From Spirochaetaceae bacterium (GTDB taxonomy: Bacteria; Spirochaetota; Spirochaetia; DSM-2461), in the NCBI GenBank assembly GCA_965232615.1, contig OZ246985.1:847778-911777 (forward strand): a stretch of 64,000 bases of DNA. Reading direction: 5' to 3'. The notes under the pieces are model-generated. The model did no database searches, was not told the DNA's origin, and saw only the letters and a list, made by a program, of their open reading frames with translations. Made by a program: the position numbers and the translations under genes. The first letter of the stretch is position 1, and every line of letters begins with the position of its first letter. This document shows, piece by piece, positions 1,469-63,900 of the stretch.

Positions 1469-1588
1469 GGGCACCTCTAAAAAACCTTATTTCGTTTTTA
1501 GCTTGATCTTTTTCCTCGCTGCTACGTTGTCAAAATACTCAACTAAGCATGTGCGTCAATTTCCTAAAGCTGTTTTTTAGAGGTACCC
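1469..1588 (+). repeat. Minimal copy (E1) of the TIR-bounded MITE-like element: GGGCACCTCTAAAA end, 70-bp module A, cgtcaatttcctaaagctg, TTTTAGAGGTACCC end
   Basis: Inverted termini GGGCACCTCTAAAA/TTTTAGAGGTACCC. Module A (gatctttttcctcgctgctacgttgtcaaaatactcaactaagc) recurs in at least 8 other copies in the window. Confidence 0.85.
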
Positions 1589-1775: not shown

Positions 1776-1862
1776 ATGAAGAAGAATTTATTTGAGTTGA
1801 TTAGTACGTCAGTATTTAAGACAAGCCGCATAGATGTGGTGAACACAAGGAGTCGTTCATGA
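1776..1862 (+). CDS. 28-codon upstream small ORF (MKKNLFELISTSVFKTSRIDVVNTRSRS) overlapping the start of the downstream lipoprotein gene
   Basis: Strong SD (ataaggagga) 7 nt before the ATG at 1776. Its stop TGA overlaps the ATG of the 1859 gene (tcATGA). Could be a leader peptide or translational-coupling ORF, or spurious. Confidence 0.25.
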   Translation: MKKNLFELISTSVFKTSRIDVVNTRSRS

Positions 1863-2707
1863 AGTTTGAGACCATAACAATTAGTATTCTGACCGCCCTC
1901 ATTCTGCTCGCCGGCTGTCCATCTGCCGATACAGTCGATATTGCAACAGTGCAGGGCTTCTCTATTTCCATTGGTGACCAAACTGTCACCGTCTCGCAAG
2001 CATCAACTTTCACCGTAACGATCAACAATGCCGATCTGACCGCAGGAACTGATTACGGCCTGAGCATAGAGAAAAAAGATGGAACCGCCGTAGAAGCCGT
2101 CACCATAGATAACAGCGGTCTAGTCTCTATAGCAGACACGATCGGCACAGACGATACCGGAACCTACACCGTTACAGCCGCCGGAACGGGCAAGTACACT
2201 GGAGAGACAACAGTCGATTTCGTACTGACGGTAGTGTACAACATAGGCGACACCGGCCCCGCCGGAGGGATAATCTTCTATGTGAATACTAATGCCGCCA
2301 GCGATGGATGGACTTACCTGGAGGCGGCCTCGCAGGATCACGATGTTACTGTTCCATGGGGTGCTGCTGTAACGGTTAACACGGGCACAGCCATAGGAAC
2401 CGGAGAATCCAACACAGCAATGATAGTGACCGCACTTGGTGATAACGGAGGAACGGCTTACGCGGCGAAAATCTGTAACGATTTAGTGCTGGACGGCTAT
2501 GATGACTGGTTTTTGCCGTCCAAGGATGAGTTGAATGAGTTGTATGAGCAGAAAGATTCAGTAGGAGTTTTCGCGTCTTATCACTACTGGTCCTCGTCGG
2601 AGTACAGTGCCAACGACGCGTGGGCTCAGTACTTCAACGATGGCTTCCAGTACAACAGCAGCAACGAGTACGACGGCATCCATGTCCGTGCGGTGAGGGC
2701 TTTTTAA
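1859..2707 (+). CDS. lipoprotein with Thr/Gly-rich repetitive N-terminal region and C-terminal DUF1566 (Lcl C-terminal-like) domain
   Basis: Signal peptide with lipobox LLAGC. The C-terminus DDWFLPSKDELNELY...YWSSSEY...VRAVRAF matches the DUF1566 signature (LPT/S..EL..L, YWSST, terminal VRxVR). Confidence 0.65.
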   Translation: MKFETITISILTALILLAGCPSADTVDIATVQGFSISIGDQTVTVSQASTFTVTINNADLTAGTDYGLSIEKKDGTAVEAVTIDNSGLVSIADTIGTDDTGTYTVTAAGTGKYTGETTVDFVLTVVYNIGDTGPAGGIIFYVNTNAASDGWTYLEAASQDHDVTVPWGAAVTVNTGTAIGTGESNTAMIVTALGDNGGTAYAAKICNDLVLDGYDDWFLPSKDELNELYEQKDSVGVFASYHYWSSSEYSANDAWAQYFNDGFQYNSSNEYDGIHVRAVRAF

Positions 2708-2787: not shown

Positions 2788-3146
2788 GGGCACCTCTAAA
2801 ACCCCATTGAGTTCTTGACTCAGATCTTTTCCGCCGCTACTGCGTTGTCAAAATACTCAACTAAGCTTGAGTTTTTGCCTGCCTGTGCGTGTCCGCACGC
2901 AGACAGGCCGCCTTGCATCAAGAAAAAATTTAATCATGTGTGTACCGCTATCAGGTGTGTACCACTATCAGGTGTGTACCGCTATCAGGTGTGTACCGCT
3001 ATCAGGTGTGTACCGCTATCAGGTGTGTACCGCTATCAGGTGTGTACCGCAGGGCGTAGCCCGAGGAACACACCGCCACAGGGCGTAGCCCGAGGAACAC
3101 ACCGCCAGTGCGCCAAATTCTAAAAATGGTTTTTTAGAATTTGCCT
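2788..3146 (+). repeat. MITE-like element copy E2: GGGCACCTCTAAAA end, module A, palindromic module B, 7 x 16-bp units (gtgtaccgctatcagg), hairpin unit(s), ttttttagaatttgcc end
   Basis: Seen directly. Tandem 16-mers at about 2939-3051, then cagggcgtagcccgaggaacacaccgcca repeated twice. The right end supplies the stop codon of tsaE. The ORFs at 2815-3123 and 2867-3088 are translation artefacts of the repeats. Confidence 0.85.
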
Positions 3147-3631
3147 GAAGCATTGGTAACAGAGATTGATCTTTCACCATCTTTCATCATTTCAATATTG
3201 ACTTGTATCGTCCGATCCGGCAGTTCATTGATCACATGATCACCCCATTCGATAAGGCACACTCCAGACCCGTTAAGCATTTCCTCAATGCCAAGCCAAA
3301 AAAATTCTTCTACCGAATTCAATCGGTAGAGGTCCATGTGATAAAGCTTCATTGTACCACTGTATTCGTTGATCAGTATGAATGATGGACTGGTTACTGG
3401 TTCAATTACTCCAAGAGCTTCAGCGATCCCTTGAGCAAACACGGTTTTCCCGACTCCAAGGACACCTGACAGGGTGACTATATCTCCCGGAACAAGGTGT
3501 TTTCCGAACTGAAATCCTGCCTTTTTCGTTCCAGCAGTATCAAAGGTTTTAATCTCCATGACCTGAGTAGGCCGTCTTTTTCCATAATAAGGATTTTTTA
3601 GAGGTGCCCTTACGATAGTGAAGAGGAACAT
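3134..3631 (-). CDS. tsaE: tRNA threonylcarbamoyladenosine biosynthesis ATPase TsaE (YjeE)
   Basis: P-loop GVLGVGKT. Homology begins at MEIKTF, so the true start is probably the internal ATG at 3559. The annotated N-terminal extension reads through a solo TIR. The stop codon lies inside the E2 right terminus. Confidence 0.7.
   Translation of the reverse strand: MFLFTIVRAPLKNPYYGKRRPTQVMEIKTFDTAGTKKAGFQFGKHLVPGDIVTLSGVLGVGKTVFAQGIAEALGVIEPVTSPSFILINEYSGTMKLYHMDLYRLNSVEEFFWLGIEEMLNGSGVCLIEWGDHVINELPDRTIQVNIEMMKDGERSISVTNASGKF
3594..3609 (+). repeat. solo TIR (TTTTTTAGAGGTGCCC) of the MITE family
   Basis: Exact match to the element terminus, isolated between tsaE and parC. Confidence 0.5.
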
Positions 3632-12275: not shown

Positions 12276-13940
12276 ATGAGTAGGATCTATATTTCCGGAC
12301 ATAGAAATCCCGACTTCGACTCAATAGCTTCGGCTTATGTATACGCCCATTTGAAGAATAGAGTGGATCCGAACAACAGCTACATTCCTGTTCGCTGTGG
12401 TAATATCAACGCCCAGACCAGGTCAGTTTTTACAAAATTGGGCATTGAACCACCGCAGTATATGAAGGATGTAAGGGCAAAAGTTGCCGATGTGGTGGAT
12501 AGAGATGTACCTCGTCTTGAATTAAAAGACCCTCTACAATCGGCCATAGGAGTACTTGATGAAACAGGAGTGAGTCTGCTGCCGGTCTTTGATGAGGATG
12601 GCAGCTACCAGGGCATTGTCAGCAGTGTTGAAGTGAGCCATTTTCTTATGAGAGAAACTTTTGGTGCCAGACCTGCATACCATTTCCGCATCGATAATCT
12701 TGCCAAGGTGGTACCAGGTTGTATGATGCATAAGGGAATAGCAGAAGATTTCACAGTTCCCATTATGATTGGAGCCATGCCTTTTGAACGAAGCGTTGAG
12801 TGTATAACAGCTTTGAATACAAATCAGGCATTGCTTATTGTCGGTATGCGCCGTGATCTTGTTGATTATGCCATAAGTAATGACTTTCCGGCCGTCATAC
12901 TCACAGGTGCTACCAGGGAGGAAGTTGCGAAGCTTGATTTGTCCCGGTATACGGGTTCTGTTTATCTCTCCGATGTTGATACAGCGGAGACAGTCCGGCT
13001 TTTGCGTTTCAGCACCCCTCTGGAGAAAATTATTGAAACTGATATAGAACTTCTTGAAGCCAGTACAAGTTTTGATCAGGCAAAGTCAATTCTATCCTCA
13101 TCGGGCCTGAGGGGATTACCAGTCTTCGATAATGGGCAATTTGTGGGCATTGTGTCTCGAGGTTCTTTCCTCAATAGGCCCCGGAATAAACTAATCCTGG
13201 TCGATCACAATGAACTGGATCAAAGTATACCTGGAGCCAGGGATGCTGACATCCTTGAGATTATCGATCATCATCGTGTTGGGTCAATCATGTCTCGAAA
13301 CCCCTTCAGTCTGTATACTCGACCTGTGGGCTGTACCTGCACCATCCTCCGTCAATTATACAGACAACACGGTGTGGCCATATCGACAGAAATCGCCCTC
13401 CTTATGCTTTCTGCAATCCTTTCGGATACGGTATTACTCAAATCTCCCACCACCACGGATGAGGACAGACAGACCGCAGAAGGCCTTGCCCGTCATGCCG
13501 ATGTTGACTGGACGGTATGGGGTCAGGAGATTTTCGCTTCAGGTGCCCGCCTGGCAGAAATTGAACCCATGAATGCTATCAATGAAGATTTCAAAATTTA
13601 CGAATCAGGTTCAATTCGTTTCGGTATTGGTCAGGTGGAAGTTCAAACTCTGTCAGGGTTGGAGGATGTCTCCGAAAGTCTGCAGAAGGCCCTCACCCGA
13701 ACGAAGGAATCTCAGACTCTGGATGGTGTAATGCTCCTTATCACCGATATAATGAAGGAAGACAGTGTCCTTTTAACCAGGGGTTTGAATAAAGTTGTCC
13801 GTTCTCTTCCTTATGAGGTGATGCCTGACGGTATCCTCAGCCTTCCCGGTATTCTTTCCCGGAAAAAGCAGCTTCTCCCTGAGATAATTCGAGCTGTTGA
13901 AGAAACCAGGGTCTCTCTGGAGGATGAAGGGCACCTCTAA
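12276..13940 (+). CDS. DHH-CBS-DHHA2 protein, putative CBS-domain-containing manganese-dependent inorganic pyrophosphatase
   Basis: N-terminal DHH (GHRNPDFDSIASA), a central CBS pair and a C-terminal DHHA2. The stop codon (GGG CAC CTC TAA) is supplied by the left TIR of repeat E4. Confidence 0.6.
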   Translation: MSRIYISGHRNPDFDSIASAYVYAHLKNRVDPNNSYIPVRCGNINAQTRSVFTKLGIEPPQYMKDVRAKVADVVDRDVPRLELKDPLQSAIGVLDETGVSLLPVFDEDGSYQGIVSSVEVSHFLMRETFGARPAYHFRIDNLAKVVPGCMMHKGIAEDFTVPIMIGAMPFERSVECITALNTNQALLIVGMRRDLVDYAISNDFPAVILTGATREEVAKLDLSRYTGSVYLSDVDTAETVRLLRFSTPLEKIIETDIELLEASTSFDQAKSILSSSGLRGLPVFDNGQFVGIVSRGSFLNRPRNKLILVDHNELDQSIPGARDADILEIIDHHRVGSIMSRNPFSLYTRPVGCTCTILRQLYRQHGVAISTEIALLMLSAILSDTVLLKSPTTTDEDRQTAEGLARHADVDWTVWGQEIFASGARLAEIEPMNAINEDFKIYESGSIRFGIGQVEVQTLSGLEDVSESLQKALTRTKESQTLDGVMLLITDIMKEDSVLLTRGLNKVVRSLPYEVMPDGILSLPGILSRKKQLLPEIIRAVEETRVSLEDEGHL

Positions 13941-14158
13941 AAAACCCATTGAGTTCTTGACTCGACCTGCCTGCCTGTGCGTGTCCGCACGCAGACAGGC
14001 CGCCTTGCATCAAGAGAAAATTTAAGCAGAGGTGCGTACCGCAGGAGCAAAGCTCCGAGGAACGCACCGCCACTATCAGGTGCGTACCGCAGGAGCAAAG
14101 CTCCGAGGAACACACCGCCATTTCGTCAATTTCCTGAAGCTGTTTTTTAGAGGTACCC
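13929..14158 (+). repeat. MITE-like element copy E4 (TIR, variant-A module, module B, two 41-nt hairpin units of the gcgt/ggagc type, TIR)
   Basis: Hairpin units at 14031-14071 and 14079-14119 (ggtgcgtaccgcaggagcaaagctccgaggaacgcaccgcc). The ORF at 13837-14121 is an artefact. Confidence 0.85.
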
Positions 14159-14300
14159 TGAAGACAAACTCAATCCGACGAAAAATCTGTAGCATCAGGA
14201 AATTGTAGGCGAAAAGTCTCAGAAAAAATCAAGGTAGAAAAAAAATCAAAAAAAAATGATAAAGGATTAATAGTGTTATAGTCGATATTTAGAGTAATCT

Positions 14301-16685: not shown

Positions 16686-16716
16686 GGGCACCTCTAAAAA
16701 CCTTATTTCGTTTCTG
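16686..16716 (+). repeat. truncated left end of the MITE-like element (E5)
   Basis: gggcacctctaaaaaccttatttcgtttctggc matches the variant-B left end, then homology stops. Confidence 0.55.
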
Positions 16717-22521: not shown

Positions 22522-22532
22522 GAGAGAATTCC

Positions 22533-22546
22533 TTTTAGAGGTGCCC
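22533..22546 (+). repeat. solo TIR TTTTAGAGGTGCCC immediately upstream of the acyl-CoA synthetase start
   Basis: Exact terminus sequence. Confidence 0.45.
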
Positions 22547-22678: not shown

Positions 22679-22711
22679 GGGCAGCTCTAAAAAACAGCTT
22701 TAGAGGTGCCC
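22679..22711 (+). repeat. 33-bp mini-palindrome formed by fused left and right TIRs (gggcagctctaaaaaacagctttagaggtgccc)
   Basis: Both termini present with no internal modules. Confidence 0.55.
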
Positions 22712-29843: not shown

Positions 29844-30828
29844 GACGGACGCTCTGTTAATAGTCAACAACCTCAGAAAACACTTTCCGATAGGCAACAG
29901 AGGTATTTTGAGCAGGCAAAAATCCCTGGTCAAATCTGTAGACGGAGTATCTTTTTCCATCACCCGGGGAAAAACTCTGGGACTGGTAGGAGAATCCGGA
30001 TGTGGAAAATCCACAACGGGCCGTACAATCCTTCGGCTGTATAAACCCACAGATGGAGATGTCCTGTTCGATGGTAAAAACATCTCCCATACTCCCCAGA
30101 AGGACCTTTTTCCCTACCGCAAAAGAATGCAGATGATTTTTCAGGATCCTTATGCCTCCCTGAATTCCCGCATGACAGTAACAGACATAATTGGAGAAGG
30201 CATCACGACTCACAATATTTATAAAGGAAATGAAAAGCAGGAACGAATATTTGATTTACTTCATCGAGTCGGATTGAAAAGAGAACACGCGAACCGATAC
30301 CCCCACGAGTTTTCCGGCGGGCAAAGGCAGCGAGTTGGTATCGCCCGTGCCCTGGCGGTAGAACCTGAACTGATTATTTGTGATGAGCCCATATCGGCCC
30401 TTGATGTATCCATTCAGGCTCAAGTCGTCAACATGCTGGAAGATCTGCAGGATGAGATGAATCTGACCTACCTGTTTATCGCTCACGACCTTTCCATGGT
30501 GAAGCATATCTCAGACCATATCGCGGTGATGTATCTGGGTATGCTGACAGAAACAGCAGACAGCGATGAACTCTATAAGAATCCCCAGCACCCCTATACA
30601 CAGGCTCTCCTCTCCGCCATACCCTATCCGGATCCAGAGATTACCCGTCAAAAGAAACGGATTGTACTTGAAGGGGATGTTCCTTCCCCTGTTGATCCTC
30701 CGGGAGGATGCCGATTTGCATCCCGTTGTCCTCTGAACAAGGATGGGATAAGTGAGATCTGTCAGACTGTTACACCGGAATTGGTGGAAAGAGATTCGGG
30801 GCACTTTGTTGCCTGCCACAAAGTCTGA
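29836..30828 (+). CDS. oppF: oligopeptide ABC transporter ATP-binding protein
   Basis: Walker A GESGCGKST and signature SGGQRQR. The likely start MPETDALL overlaps the oppD stop. Confidence 0.8.
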   Translation: MPETDALLIVNNLRKHFPIGNRGILSRQKSLVKSVDGVSFSITRGKTLGLVGESGCGKSTTGRTILRLYKPTDGDVLFDGKNISHTPQKDLFPYRKRMQMIFQDPYASLNSRMTVTDIIGEGITTHNIYKGNEKQERIFDLLHRVGLKREHANRYPHEFSGGQRQRVGIARALAVEPELIICDEPISALDVSIQAQVVNMLEDLQDEMNLTYLFIAHDLSMVKHISDHIAVMYLGMLTETADSDELYKNPQHPYTQALLSAIPYPDPEITRQKKRIVLEGDVPSPVDPPGGCRFASRCPLNKDGISEICQTVTPELVERDSGHFVACHKV

Positions 30829-31010
30829 ACCCGTTGCTTCATTGTAGCCACTACTGTTTCAATCCGTTCAATCAGAAGAACTTGCCCCCTCAAACACCAC
30901 GCGCAGTGGCGCGTTGATTGTATGAAAAAAAATACAAAAATTTCCCGAGAAACCCTTGACGGAAAATTGCACTATAGTCATATTGTATTAAAGAATTGGT
31001 ACAATAGGAG

Positions 31011-37781: not shown

Positions 37782-37919
37782 TGTACTTGAAGGGAATGAT
37801 CCTTTCCCCTGTTGATCCGTCGAGAGGATGCCGAATTGCATCCCGTTGTCCTCTGAACGTGGAAAGAGATTCGGGGCACTTTGTTGCCTACCGCGAAGTC
37901 TGAACCCATTGCTTCATGG
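37782..37919 (+). pseudogene. duplicated fragment of the oppF 3' end (about 90% identity to 30662-30850, with a 47-bp internal deletion)
   Basis: Direct sequence comparison. ttgtacttgaagg..cccctgttgatcc..ggatgccga.ttgcatcccgttgtcctctgaac..tggaaagagattcggggcactttgttgcct.cc.c.aagtctgaaccc.ttgcttcat. Confidence 0.55.
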
Positions 37920-44503: not shown

Positions 44504-44723
44504 GGCAACCTCTAAAAAACAGCTTTAGGAAATTGACGCATTGGCGGTGTGTTCCTCGGGTTACGCTCTGCGGTACACACCTGGTAGCGGTACACACCGG
44601 ATTAAATTTTTGTCGATACAAGGCAGGCAAAATCTAAGGGCGTAGCTGGGCTTAGTTGAGTATTTTGACAACGCAGTAGCGGCGGAAAAGACCTGAGTCA
44701 AGAACTCAATGGGTTTTTTAGAC
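44504..44723 (-). repeat. MITE-like element copy E7 (minus orientation), private terminus variant ttttttagactgaag
   Basis: Starts ggcaacctctaaaaaacagctttaggaaattgacg and contains rc hairpin units, module B and module A. Shares its odd left-TIR variant with E8. Confidence 0.8.
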
Positions 44724-44936
44724 TGAAGTTTTAAGGGAATTTCGGTCTAAATACTTATATAGAAAGAAGTTGAGCTAGTTTTGCCCTCAAAACGCCCCCA
44801 TGTAATATTGCAATTTTATTATATTATTGTATTGACAATTATGTAGATATAATTCATAATGCACCCATGTATATTCAAATAGTACCAAACAGAAATTCGC
44901 CTCCCTGCATTCTGCTGCGGGAAGACCACCGAGAGA

Positions 44937-45994: not shown

Positions 45995-46384
45995 CTTCAG
46001 TCTAAAAACCTCATTGTGTTCTTGACTCGATCTTTTCTGCCGCTACTGCGTTTTCAAAATGCTCACGTAATCAGGTGTGTACCGCAGGGCGTAGCCCGAG
46101 GAACACACCGCCACTATCAGGTGTGTACCGCAGGGCGTAGCCCGAGGAACACACCGCCACTATCAGGTGTGTACCGCAGGGCGTAGCCCGAGGAACACAC
46201 CGCCACTATCAGGTGTGTACCGCAGGGCGTAGCCCGAGGAACACACCGCCACTATCAGGTGCGTACCGCAGGAGCAAAGCTCCGAGGAACACACCGCCAC
46301 TATCAGGTGTGTACCGCAGGGCGTAGCCCGAGGAACACACCGCTACTGCGCCAAATTCCAAAAACGATTTTTTAGAGGTTGCCT
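45995..46384 (+). repeat. MITE-like element copy E8 with six tandem 46-bp hairpin units
   Basis: Left end cttcagtctaaaaacc is the exact inverse of the E7 end. Units ctatcaggtgtgtaccgcagggcgtagcccgaggaacacaccgcca x6, one of them the gcgt/ggagc variant. The ORF at 46209-46442 is an artefact. Confidence 0.8.
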
Positions 46385-48891: not shown

Positions 48892-49050
48892 GGGCACCTC
48901 TAAAAACCTTATTTCGTTTTTGGCTTGATCTTTTTCCTCGCTGCTACGTTGTCAAAATGCTCACGTAATCAGGTGCGTACCGCATGAGCAAAGCTCCGAG
49001 GAACGCACCGCCACTTCGTCAATTTCCTAAAGCTGTTTTTAGAGGTACCC
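48892..49050 (+). repeat. MITE-like element copy E9 (one hairpin unit)
   Basis: Full TIRs. Variant-B module A, one gcgt/ggagc-type hairpin and the cgtcaatttcctaaagctg end. Confidence 0.85.
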
Positions 49051-59762: not shown

Positions 59763-60220
59763 TCTATCTTAAGGCAACCTCTAAAAACCGTTTTTGGAAT
59801 TTGGTGCAGTGACGGTGCGTTCCTCGGAGCTTTGCTCCTGCGGTACGCACCTGCTTAAATTTTTTCTTGATGCAAGGCGGTAAAAGCGGAGCTAGCCTGA
59901 GCGGTTGGCGGTGCGTTCCTCGGAGCTTTGCTCCTGCGGTACGCACCTGTTTAAATTTTTTCTTGATGCAAGGCGGTAAAAGCGGAGCTAGCCTGAGCGG
60001 TTGGCGGTGCGTTCCTCGGAGCTTTGCTCCTGCGGTACGCACCTGTTTAAATTTTTTCTTGATGCAAGGCGGTAAAAGCGGAGCTAGCCTGAGCGGTTGG
60101 CGGTGCGTTCCTCGGAGCTTTGCTCCTGCGGTACGCACCTGTTTACGTGAACATTTTGACAACGTAGCAGGGAGGAAAAAGATCAAGCCAAAAACGAAAT
60201 AAGGTTTTTTAGAGGTGCCC
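59763..60220 (-). repeat. MITE-like element copy E10 (minus orientation) with 4 x about 96-bp tandem units (hairpin plus module B)
   Basis: Unit ggcggtgcgttcctcggagctttgctcctgcggtacgcacctgtttaaattttttcttgatgcaaggcggtaaaagcggagctagcctgagcggtt. The ORFs at 59764-60258 and 59867-60202 are artefacts. Confidence 0.85.
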
Positions 60221-60337
60221 TTATAGATGACCTCACAAGATCGCGCAGTTTCATTCATGATTAGTTTTCCATTTTCACCGATTCCAAATGGGGGAGATTC
60301 CTGTGGATATTAGTGTTAAGGCACCGAATCTGTTTTC

Positions 60338-61505: not shown

Positions 61506-61756
61506 GGGCACCTCTAAAAAACAGCTTTCAAAAATTGACGAAATGGCGGTGTGTTCCTCAGGCTATGCCCTGCGGTACACACCTGTTAGTGGCGGTATGT
61601 TCCTCAGGCTACGCCCTGTGGTACACACCTGGTTAAATTTTTGTCGATACAAGGCGGCAGAAGCTCAAGCGTAGCTGGGCTTAGATGAGTATTTTGACAA
61701 TGCAGTAGCGGCGGAAAAGATCGAGTCAAGAACTAAAGGGGTTTTTAGAGGTGCCC
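61506..61756 (-). repeat. MITE-like element copy E11 (minus orientation), perfect TIRs, two degenerate hairpin units
   Basis: GGGCACCTCTAAAA...TTTTAGAGGTGCCC, flanked by TTAA on both sides. Confidence 0.85.
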
Positions 61757-63352: not shown

Positions 63353-63900
63353 GGGTACCTCTAAAAAACAGCTTTAGGAAATTGACGAAATGGCGGTGTG
63401 TTCCTCGGAGCTTTGCTCCTGCGGTACGCACCTGCTTAAATTTTTTGTCGATACAGGGTGGCAAAAGCTCAAGCGTAGCCTAAGCGGTTGGCGGTGCGTT
63501 CCTCGGAGCTTTGCTCCTGCGGTACGCACCTGCTTAAATTTTTGTCGATACAGGGTGGCAAAAGTTCAAGCGTAGCCTAAGCGGTTGGCGGTGCGTTCCT
63601 CGGAGCTTTGCTCCTGCGGTACGCACCTGCTTAAATTTTTGTCGATACAGGGTGGCAAAAGTTCAAGCGTAGCCTAAGCGGTTGGCGGTGCGTTCCTCGG
63701 AGCTTTGCTCCTGCGGTACGCACCTGCTTAAATTTTTGTCGATACAGGGTGGCAAAAGTTCAAGCGTAGCCTAAGCGGTTGGCGGTGCGTTCCTCGGAGC
63801 TTTGCTCCTGCGGTACGCACCTGCTTACGTGAGCATTTTGACAACGCAGTAGCGGCAGAAAAGATCGAGTCAAGAACTAAATGGGTTTTTAGAGGTGCCC
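63353..63900 (-). repeat. MITE-like element copy E12 (minus orientation) with 5 x about 118-bp tandem units
   Basis: Unit ggcggtgcgttcctcggagctttgctcctgcggtacgcacctgcttaaatttttgtcgatacagggtggcaaaagttcaagcgtagcctaagcggtt. The ORF at 63390-63575 is an artefact. Confidence 0.85.

Follow-up and report, generated by a model that had tools for sequence, protein, structure and literature searches.

As a rule, repeated extragenic hairpins are lineage-specific, with a transposase of their own as the explanation. The hairpin described here differs: two phyla share the same internal-loop letters over a range of 35-76% GC, whereas the stems vary freely. It is carried as tandem units by an element that occupies exactly positions 13929-14158, between two TGAA duplications, of a 64,000-nucleotide stretch of a Spirochaetaceae bacterium (contig OZ246985.1, positions 847,778 to 911,777; this whole stretch is called the window). 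The repeat is a MITE (miniature inverted-repeat transposable element), a non-autonomous derivative of a DDE-type transposon, with a layout like that of BOX, and it forms a new family.

The BOX elements of Streptococcus pneumoniae (boxA - n x boxB - boxC) are modular, MITE-like and intergenic, contain ~45-nt tandem units with stable predicted folds, are co-transcribed and are non-autonomous (PMC3184786). The window family likewise has end modules around 0-6 tandem units with a period of 46 or 96-97 nt. This analogy is by layout only. The window family belongs to another phylum, has no apparent sequence relation to BOX and shows clear 4-bp target duplications. In addition, its unit is part of a cross-phylum motif whose loop is invariant, and boxB is not described in such terms. 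A second relative in layout is BrickBuilt of Porphyromonas gingivalis, in which leader and tail subunits with small inverted-repeat ends flank a variable tandem core that is always intergenic (PMC4596501). BrickBuilt is a minisatellite inside a MITE. Its unit, a 23-nt repeat without spacers, has promoter activity, whereas the window unit is a hairpin with a conserved internal loop and no promoter consensus.

REP, BIME, REPIN and SMAG repeats resemble the window units as ~35-40-nt imperfect palindromes that follow genes in single, tandem or inverted form and show compensatory changes between subfamilies; for REP and SMAG, effects on transcript stability are documented (PMC3184786). However, the window unit lacks the GT[AG]G head, and its conserved letters lie in the internal loop and not in the foot. 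Unlike REP/RAYT pairs, the window units are direct tandem repeats inside an inverted-repeat-ended element with target duplications, and no RAYT gene is present in the 64-kb window. REPs are also lineage-specific, whereas the window loop is identical across phyla. Elements derived from IS200/IS605 are without inverted-repeat ends or target duplications, and the window elements have both. The bcr1 element of the Bacillus cereus group and the Correia element of Neisseria are transcribed MITEs, and the RNA structure of bcr1 is kept by compensatory changes (PMC3184786). In these elements the structure arises from the whole element or its ends and is genus-specific, whereas the window hairpin is a self-contained 40-nt module found in unrelated carriers and different phyla. 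Correia elements are processed by RNase III. Finally, the hairpin shares with Rfam families the arrangement of covarying helices around invariant unpaired nucleotides, but no family matches it. The hairpin is filed here among the repeated extragenic hairpins, as a new one.

Covariation and loop sequence of the hairpin

The 38-nt type-2 unit is laid out as P1 (7 nt)-ACCGCA-P2 (5 nt)-AAA-P2'-GAGGA-P1', where P1 and P2 are the outer and inner stems. Unit 1 of the element reads GGTGCGT-ACCGCA-GGAGC-AAA-GCTCC-GAGGA-ACGCACC, with the P1 arms GGTGCGT/ACGCACC and the internal loop ACCGCA/GAGGA. A covariance model built from ten units, used to search the window with filters off, recovers 22 full-length hairpin units with E values from 4e-7 to 7e-16. 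The 13-nt 5' part of the unit, GGTGYGTACCGCA, occurs 27 times (at most one mismatch), against 0.05 expected. The units in the window, 38 nt in length, are all intergenic, with CA or AA just 5' of P1 and GCCA or GA just 3' of the hairpin.

A preliminary description of the window had distinguished two unit types that differ by pair-preserving changes in the outer and inner stems, and both changes are confirmed. Type 1 (GGTGTGT...GGGC-GTA-GCCC...ACACACC) is found at 3039-3074 and at five positions in 46074-46341, and type 2 forms arrays of four units in 59814-60139 and four units in 63493-63821. Six type-1 copies had been assigned to 46064-46340; five are type 1, but the sixth, at 46258-46295, is a hybrid. 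The 63-kb array contains, besides its four type-2 units, a further hybrid at 63395-63432. The unit that had been placed at 48978-49018 is of type 2, although its true span is 48972-49009 and its inner stem carries an uncompensated G>T (TGAGC/GCTCC). More generally, the units reported earlier are present, but several of their coordinates are off by 2-6 nt and their ends are 2-3 nt too long. The earlier description did not mention the three divergent units (44546-44581, 61548-61583 and 61594-61629) or the MITE that encloses the units.

The hybrids with a C·A mismatch do exist, and there are three in the window (14079-14116, 46258-46295 and 63395-63432). In the hybrid of the present element, the 5' arm and P2 are those of type 2 and the 3' arm, ACACACC, is that of type 1. 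These hybrids had been regarded as expected intermediates between the types. However, they share the 3' arm and the downstream flank with type-1 contexts, and because of this match they are best read as recombination or conversion mosaics and not as mutational intermediates. Decay is also observed: the type-1 unit at 44546-44581 has two inner-stem changes, both uncompensated, and the divergent units at 61548-61583 and 61594-61629 contain G·U pairs and a changed loop (ACCACA). At 2933-3050, a 17-nt 5' half-unit (ATCAGGTGTGTACCGCT) that is unable to fold is repeated seven times in tandem, directly followed at 3050-3107 by two 29-nt 3' halves; the unfoldable hairpin fragments at 2933-3107 are amplified by slippage. 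Within the window lineage, the only two compensated differences are those between type 1 and type 2, and the remaining variants look like neutral decay. The covariation of this lineage on its own is thin evidence for a selected structure.

The motif is found well beyond the window. Among the matches listed in a genome scan with the unit pattern are a Spirochaetaceae metagenome-assembled genome (MAG CBDDOY01), with genes up to 95.6% identical to those of the window, and Alkalispirochaeta alkalica DSM 8900 (58% GC). From this identity, the source of the window is an uncultured member of the Spirochaetaceae close to the MAG. In A. alkalica, a unit located 3' of the 5S rRNA gene has loop letters identical to those of the window and different stems (GGTGYGT/ACGCACC with GGGGC-GGA-GCCCC; GGCGCGT/ACGCGCC with GGGAC-AAC-GTCCC). 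The hairpin is also present in one Clostridia contig and in ~20 metagenome contigs of 35-76% GC. The metagenome scan used the loop letters only (GTACCGCAGG-N7-14-CGAGGAAC) and returned 118 distinct matches, mostly chance, of which 16 have 5/5 paired flanks versus 1.3 in shuffles (maximum 6 in 2000), an excess free of ascertainment. Copies that fall outside the retrieval pattern also keep GUACC and GAGGAAC (two in L015, the second copy of L018, and copies in L019, L024, L025, L104, L106 and L127; L numbers denote individual loci), and among the extra copies recovered by the model in the same loci, variants of the 5' loop include ACCAGA, ACCGGA and ACCCCA. The resulting consensus is P1 (5-7 bp)-GUACC-N-S-A-P2 (3-7 bp)-loop-P2'-GA-GGAAC-P1', ~40 nt in total. 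In the alignment, P2 is usually closed by C-G with a 3-4-nt loop, and the GTACC-to-GGAAC spacing ranges from 16 to 27 nt.

In the pooled alignment of 71 matches (45 distinct sequences), standard pairs occupy 97.8% of pair cells versus 76.6% in shuffles. Changes on both sides occur at 9 of the 12 pairs, in 97 cells compared with 23.7±3.8 in shuffled alignments; sliding the partners gives no more than 24. Without guidance, RNAalifold recovers this fold from the alignment and adds C-G pairs between ACC and GGA. Based on this added pairing, GUACC/GGAAC is probably a 5-bp helix around a central A·A mismatch, which would leave NSA/GA as a 3x2 loop. The sequences from beyond the window lineage (30 distinct ones, 21 loci) display 21 different P1 stems, and their pairs comprise 308 Watson-Crick, 20 G·U, 2 A·C and 5 other (p = 1e-4 for G·U versus A·C). 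In the same set, 13 of the 15 scored positions of GUACCNSA/GAGGAAC are invariant, and variation is confined to N (G in 29 and A in 1) and S (C in 27 and G in 3). The alignment was fitted to the model and the loci were picked by their loop letters, so matches of 33-35 bits are less secure and those of at least 40 bits are safe. L032, L088, L105, L116 and L118 were left out of the counts.

These comparisons indicate that the hairpin structure is selected, on one strand (GUACC...GGAAC), with its helices kept by compensation, and that strong constraint acts on the loop sequence across phyla. The hairpin also appears to be much older and wider than the window MITE. The earlier proposal of a selected single-strand hairpin, more than a degenerate direct repeat, is supported by this cross-lineage covariation, which goes beyond the evidence on which it was first based.

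The alternative is a hairpin without function, in which young selfish palindromes would owe their compensation to shared ancestry, subfamily recombination or template-switch 'correction'. In its favor are the scarcity of compensated differences in the window lineage, the recombinant hybrids, the uncompensated changes in the decayed copies at 44546-44581 and 48972-49009, the amplified half-unit arrays that cannot fold and the dispensability of copies. However, all 21 unrelated P1 stems are paired, which neither the shuffled nor the slid controls reproduce. Template-switch correction would furthermore erase the asymmetric internal loop, yet the loop is kept over 35-76% GC and in two phyla, and a 20:2 ratio of G·U to A·C is unexpected without strand-specific selection. 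The covariation controls, the stem diversity and the paired-flank excess have already largely refuted this alternative, which we regard as very unlikely.

The same alignment bears on the idea that the hairpin is an operator or cruciform in double-stranded DNA and a target for a dimeric DNA-binding protein. Palindromic sequence with the half-site-like GTACC/GGAAC would suit such a protein. However, the loop strands lack symmetry, GTACC and GGAAC are not evenly spaced but cover the range given above, and covariation of the stems is not required for duplex recognition. For a cruciform, G·T on one strand implies A·C on the opposite one, but of the two G·T alone is tolerated. This explanation is disfavored and has only the slightest probability.

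The hairpin motif had not been catalogued before. In Rfam 15, no family reaches its gathering score over any copy in the window and 29 loci, where the only matches are to tRNA, rRNA and one S10 leader, and focused Rfam searches at E<10 give nothing relevant to the hairpin. Literature searches with the motif letters returned only unrelated primers, and keyword searches returned no description of the repeat in spirochaetes. The loop was also compared with known motifs, a comparison that is not relied on: presumably it does not fit the sarcin-ricin/loop-E bulged-G motif, kink-turns, 23S H11 GUACCCCGAGGAA or 16S h23/h27, nor signal recognition particle domain IV, hairpin-ribozyme loop B, guanidine-III, RAT antiterminator sites, attC R boxes or dif. 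The misfit is taken to lie in the register (Y7-R47 covaries, and G-C/U-A extend P1), in the strand order or in known rRNA pairing partners.

Anatomy of the transposable element

Every hairpin unit in the window sits within a composite element that is bounded by GGGCACCTCTAAAAA(AC) and its reverse complement. These terminal inverted repeats are 15-18 bp long, and the end sequence is found 20 times in the window, mostly as inverted pairs with few solo copies; more GGGCACCTCTAAAAA-type ends are present in seven MAG loci. Perfect 4-bp target duplications surround 7 of ~16 complete copies, counted in the window and MAG loci together (TGAA, TTAA, TCAA, GTAA, TTAC, TTAA and TAAT), for which the chance of a match is 1/256 per copy. 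With their small size, lack of coding capacity, terminal inverted repeats and target-site duplications, the copies have the attributes of MITEs.

The modules of the family follow a fixed order: left end, optional second hairpin plus linker, tandem hairpin units and right end (Table 1). The left module is ~90 nt and has two variants, and the right module is ~40 nt. Between these conserved modules, the number of tandem units is 0, 1, 2, 4, 5 or 6, and their period is 46 nt, or 96-97 nt where each unit carries a linker. In total, ~12 copies or fragments of 36-550 bp occur in the 64 kb and make up roughly 5% of the window. The optional modules of the present element, at 13968-14028, have a 97% identical copy at 2876-2936, recur in MAG locus L003 and have a predicted hairpin fold. 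We propose that the MITE spreads by cut-and-paste into 4-bp targets. Its arrays change by slippage and by recombination between copies.

Table 1 Positions of the modules of the element and of the other family members in the window.
Feature	Position	Strand	Remark
Target-site duplication, left copy TGAA	13925-13928	.	Identical TGAA directly outside both inverted-repeat ends
Left-end module including terminal inverted repeat GGGCACCTCTAAAAAAC	13929-13967	+	End sequence recurs 20x in window
Optional modules: imperfect second hairpin (13968-14000) and A/T-rich linker ending TTTAAGCA	13968-14028	+	
Hairpin unit 1, type 2, fully paired	14031-14068	+	Covariance-model match 62.6 bits
Hairpin unit 2, hybrid, one C·A mismatch	14079-14116	+	Covariance-model match 57.1 bits
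Right-end module ending in terminal inverted repeat GTTTTTTAGAGGTACCC	14117-14158	+	Pairs with left end in predicted fold
Target-site duplication, right copy TGAA	14159-14162	.	
Member without hairpin unit	1469-1588	+	Left and right modules only
Member with half-units	2788-3150	+	7 x 17-nt half-units, one type-1 unit (3039-3074), duplicated 3' half
Minimal element	22679-22711	.	Both inverted-repeat ends fused, ~33-36-bp palindrome, no internal modules
Member with single decayed type-1 unit (44546-44581)	44504-44731	-	Degenerate left end
Member with 46-nt-period array	46001-46383	+	Five type-1 units and hybrid 46258-46295
Member with one type-2 unit (48972-49009)	48892-49050	+	P2 G>T mismatch
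Member with 96-nt-period array	59773-60220	-	Four type-2 units, each then linker module
Member with two divergent type-1 units	61506-61756	-	TTAA duplication at flanks
Member with 97-nt-period array	63353-63900	-	Four type-2 units and hybrid 63395-63432, TCAA duplication
Solo inverted-repeat ends	3595-3609, 16686-16700, 22532-22546		

No transposase, RAYT, integrase or reverse transcriptase is present in the 64-kb window, the genes of which are only housekeeping, and neither the window nor 56 kb of MAG loci yielded an autonomous insertion sequence with the ends of this family. Carriage of the element or hairpin by phage was also considered. In viral contigs, 40 matches to the end sequence (15-mers) and 11 matches to the loop pattern were all judged to be chance, with no genuine copy of the hairpin, and this candidate was rejected. 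A CRISPR array was rejected as well, as the inter-unit segments are themselves 99% identical repeats and not unique spacers.

Genomic settings and candidate roles of the hairpin

Outside the window lineage, copies of the hairpin repeatedly accompany stable RNA genes. In locus L015, three diverged copies with perfect pairing lie between promoter-like hexamers (read by eye) and a 16S gene that is ~80% identical to both Treponema and Bacillus sequences. Two copies lie in the 16S-tRNA-Ile spacer of L018, starting 15 nt past the 16S 3' end, and others are located just upstream of tRNAs (L021 and L091), abutting a tRNA 3' end (L011) or 3' of 5S (L001, L006 and L007 of A. alkalica, and L073). The orientation is the same as that of the stable RNA gene in 7/7 independent loci. 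In L127 (4767-5620), an array with a 244-nt period and three hairpin variants per period is located between lipA and the S10 operon, with its start on the stop codon of lipA and the leader of the S10 operon downstream. The L2 protein of this locus is 100% identical to a Clostridiales MAG protein, which indicates that two phyla or more have the motif. Documented gene flow between Clostridia and spirochaetes (PMC3372971) offers a route by which the hairpin could have been shared. In L024 (66% GC), the hairpin is found within a repeat with different ends, GGGGAGACTC, and the genes that flank the other motif loci are unrelated to one another. ORFs called in L025 (76% GC) proved to be out of frame and were left aside. 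Together, the rRNA operons, tRNA flanks and unrelated mobile repeats point to a conserved, so far unnamed reader of the loop. Such a reader, if found, would define either a new cis-acting RNA module for the processing of stable RNA and mRNA or a new way of mobilizing tiny hairpins.

At the operon ends of A. alkalica (L001, L006 and L007), the last ~13 nt of 5S, A/T-flanked terminator-like palindromes and hairpin units recur in differing orders. This observation suggests that the modules after 5S are locally duplicated and shuffled.

In the window, the orientation of the element flips four times in 64 kb, each time with gene orientation, and no element is antisense to both neighbors. No promoter or terminator consensus was found within any element scanned, and the units are not followed by a U tract. 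A role as intrinsic terminator or promoter was rejected, as the scanned elements contain no consensus site, and read-through from the neighboring gene would be expected.

From these settings, we infer that the hairpin would be an RNA docking or processing module in read-through transcripts, a reading that covers the RNA, its protein reader and the transcript effect alike and that we favor tentatively, at a little less than even confidence. The unit would exert its effect as RNA, within transcripts that extend from the neighboring gene across the element, and a conserved RNA-binding protein or RNase would use the invariant loop for docking or processing. Docking would then set local transcript ends or stability, as with REP, BOX, SMAG and Correia hairpins. 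The copies inside rRNA precursors and their co-orientation with stable RNA genes speak for this RNA module, as do the orientation of the window elements with genes and the lack of an internal promoter or terminator. In the same direction, the MITE moves without needing the hairpin.

It is also possible, but on balance doubtful, that the GUACC-NSA/GA-GGAAC hairpin is an undescribed class of structured nucleic acid with its own conserved trans-acting partner. Such a class would occur in Spirochaetota, Clostridia and high-GC bacteria and in rRNA leaders, spacers and tRNA flanks, and would have been repeatedly picked up by unrelated mobile repeats. One candidate for its partner is a universal factor for RNA binding or processing; alternatively, the loop may itself form a catalytic core. 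If true, this would be a new RNA family whose biology would concern rRNA/tRNA processing, transcript insulation or a new mobility mechanism; A. alkalica is cultivable.

A catalytic hairpin has been considered separately, as a small self-processing RNA with the internal loop as its active core that would cut arrays and rRNA or tRNA flanks to units or mature ends. The ~15 invariant nucleotides between freely covarying helices, kept across phyla and in arrays and mobile contexts, are consistent with this idea, and copies lie 0-15 nt from tRNA and 16S ends. However, one internal loop of 3x2 to 6x5 without a tertiary partner is simpler than any known self-cleaving class, and no Rfam ribozyme family matches. 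Self-cleavage is decidedly improbable.

Several observations weigh against the RNA docking module. Within the window lineage, there is no excess of G·U over A·C (3 versus 1 among distinct sequences, with 2-3 A·C by a second reading). The P2 loops are mostly C-G-closed triloops, with GNA in 11 of 22 triloops, and C-G-closed GNA triloops are a signature of very stable DNA mini-hairpins. The post-5S copies in A. alkalica and L073 lie past terminator-like hairpins. In a second lineage (L019, L104 and L113), units occur as inverted pairs or antisense to both neighbors, and the MAG copy in L010 is antisense. Orthologous sites in the ~95%-identical relative, the MAG, also differ in having units at all. 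At the site orthologous to 2788-3150, which in the window carries half-unit arrays and one unit, the MAG element is devoid of units; the MAG site orthologous (by its right flank) to the unit-less 1469-1588 has an element with second hairpin, linker and one unit. Similarly, the 944-bp Clostridia array of L127 corresponds to 163 bp of unrelated spacer without the motif in L183 (3468-3630), where L2 is 96% identical. Individual copies are dispensable. Because orthologous copies come and go between close relatives, selection acts on the form of the hairpin across the family and not on its presence at each locus, a pattern that a mobility signal would explain as readily as an RNA function for the host.

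These points lead to the main competitor of the RNA module, a hairpin that acts as single-stranded DNA. Folded on the displaced or lagging strand, it would serve as the recognition or cleavage site of a strand-specific enzyme (Y1/Y2 HUH, such as RAYT/IS200-IS605, IS91, or another recombinase). This enzyme would copy or move the units, with the loop as contact surface and the MITE as one of several carriers. We consider this reading unlikely, although it accommodates much of the data. It is in agreement with the mobile, selfish character of the hairpin, including the presence or absence of copies between close relatives in two phyla, and with the tandem arrays, the inverted pairs of some lineages and the antisense copies. 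It also accounts for the carriage of the hairpin by repeats with unrelated ends (GGGCACCTCTAAAAA in the window and GGGGAGACTC in L024) and for the frequent C-G-closed GNA triloops of P2. The excess of G·T over A·C is expected equally, and co-orientation with highly transcribed genes also fits folding on the non-template strand. A weak IS91-type zinc-finger open reading frame (ORF) lies beside a motif copy in L083.

However, no HUH, RAYT or IS200 gene is present in the 64-kb window, and neither such a gene nor any other mobile-element protein recurs near the copies elsewhere (96 ORFs near copies; best 25 of 103 families). The inverted-repeat ends and 4-bp duplications of the window elements are not products of HUH transposition, and no GTAG-type head is found 5' of the palindrome. 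REP/RAYT pairs are normally lineage-specific, whereas the loop here is identical from Spirochaetota to Clostridia. Finally, the orientation in the window flips with the genes, unlike a single replication-strand bias.

The ORF in L083 (400-984, - strand) carries the IS91-type transposase zinc-finger signature at E = 5e-5, below the Pfam cut-off. One motif copy is located ~90 nt upstream, and the ORF is apparently truncated by a degenerate second copy, GTCCCGCAGC-ACA-GCGAGGAAC. The IS91 lead was rejected, as it is a single weak match in an ORF that is itself interrupted by a motif copy.

In L019 (5694-5809) and L104 (3377-3532), at 46-49% GC, the subtypes GCAGC/GUUGC and GGGUC/GAUCC form a convergent inverted pair around a conserved linker that has its own palindrome. 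This arrangement resembles that of REPINs and BIMEs and is not seen in the window.

Neighboring genes and minor observations

The element is relevant to annotation, as one or more genes take their stop codon from it and it gives rise to spurious ORFs. Within the left end, the TAA at 13938-13940 is the stop of the upstream DHH/CBS pyrophosphatase-like gene (12276-13940, Pfam), and the last three codons and stop of this gene come from the left end of the MITE. Read across the TGAA duplication, the pre-insertion frame would run 10 codons further, to a TAG at 14190-14192, and suggests that nine codons of the C terminus were replaced by the insertion. In addition, ORFs of 164-165 amino acids run through repeat arrays at 59764-60258 (-) and 3134-3631 (-) and cluster only with other ORFs that overlap elements. 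These two are likely artefacts of repeat translation that would be mis-annotated as hypothetical proteins.

Paralogous genes with the Lcl C-terminal domain (DUF1566) adjoin elements in six of seven MAG loci (L002, L003, L004, L005, L008 and L009) and once in the window (1859-2707). In L003, a cassette of gene plus element occurs as a tandem duplication whose junctions are identical. The elements may thus be what duplicates or shuffles this surface-protein-like family.

Finally, two ~60-nt blocks at 30684-30842 and 37804-37917, 90-93% identical between the sites, bracket a 7-kb stretch of the window. This stretch has a GC content of 50-54% versus ~45%, encodes GntR, SPFH, ABC/FtsX and LolA-like proteins, and may be an inserted island with direct-repeat borders.

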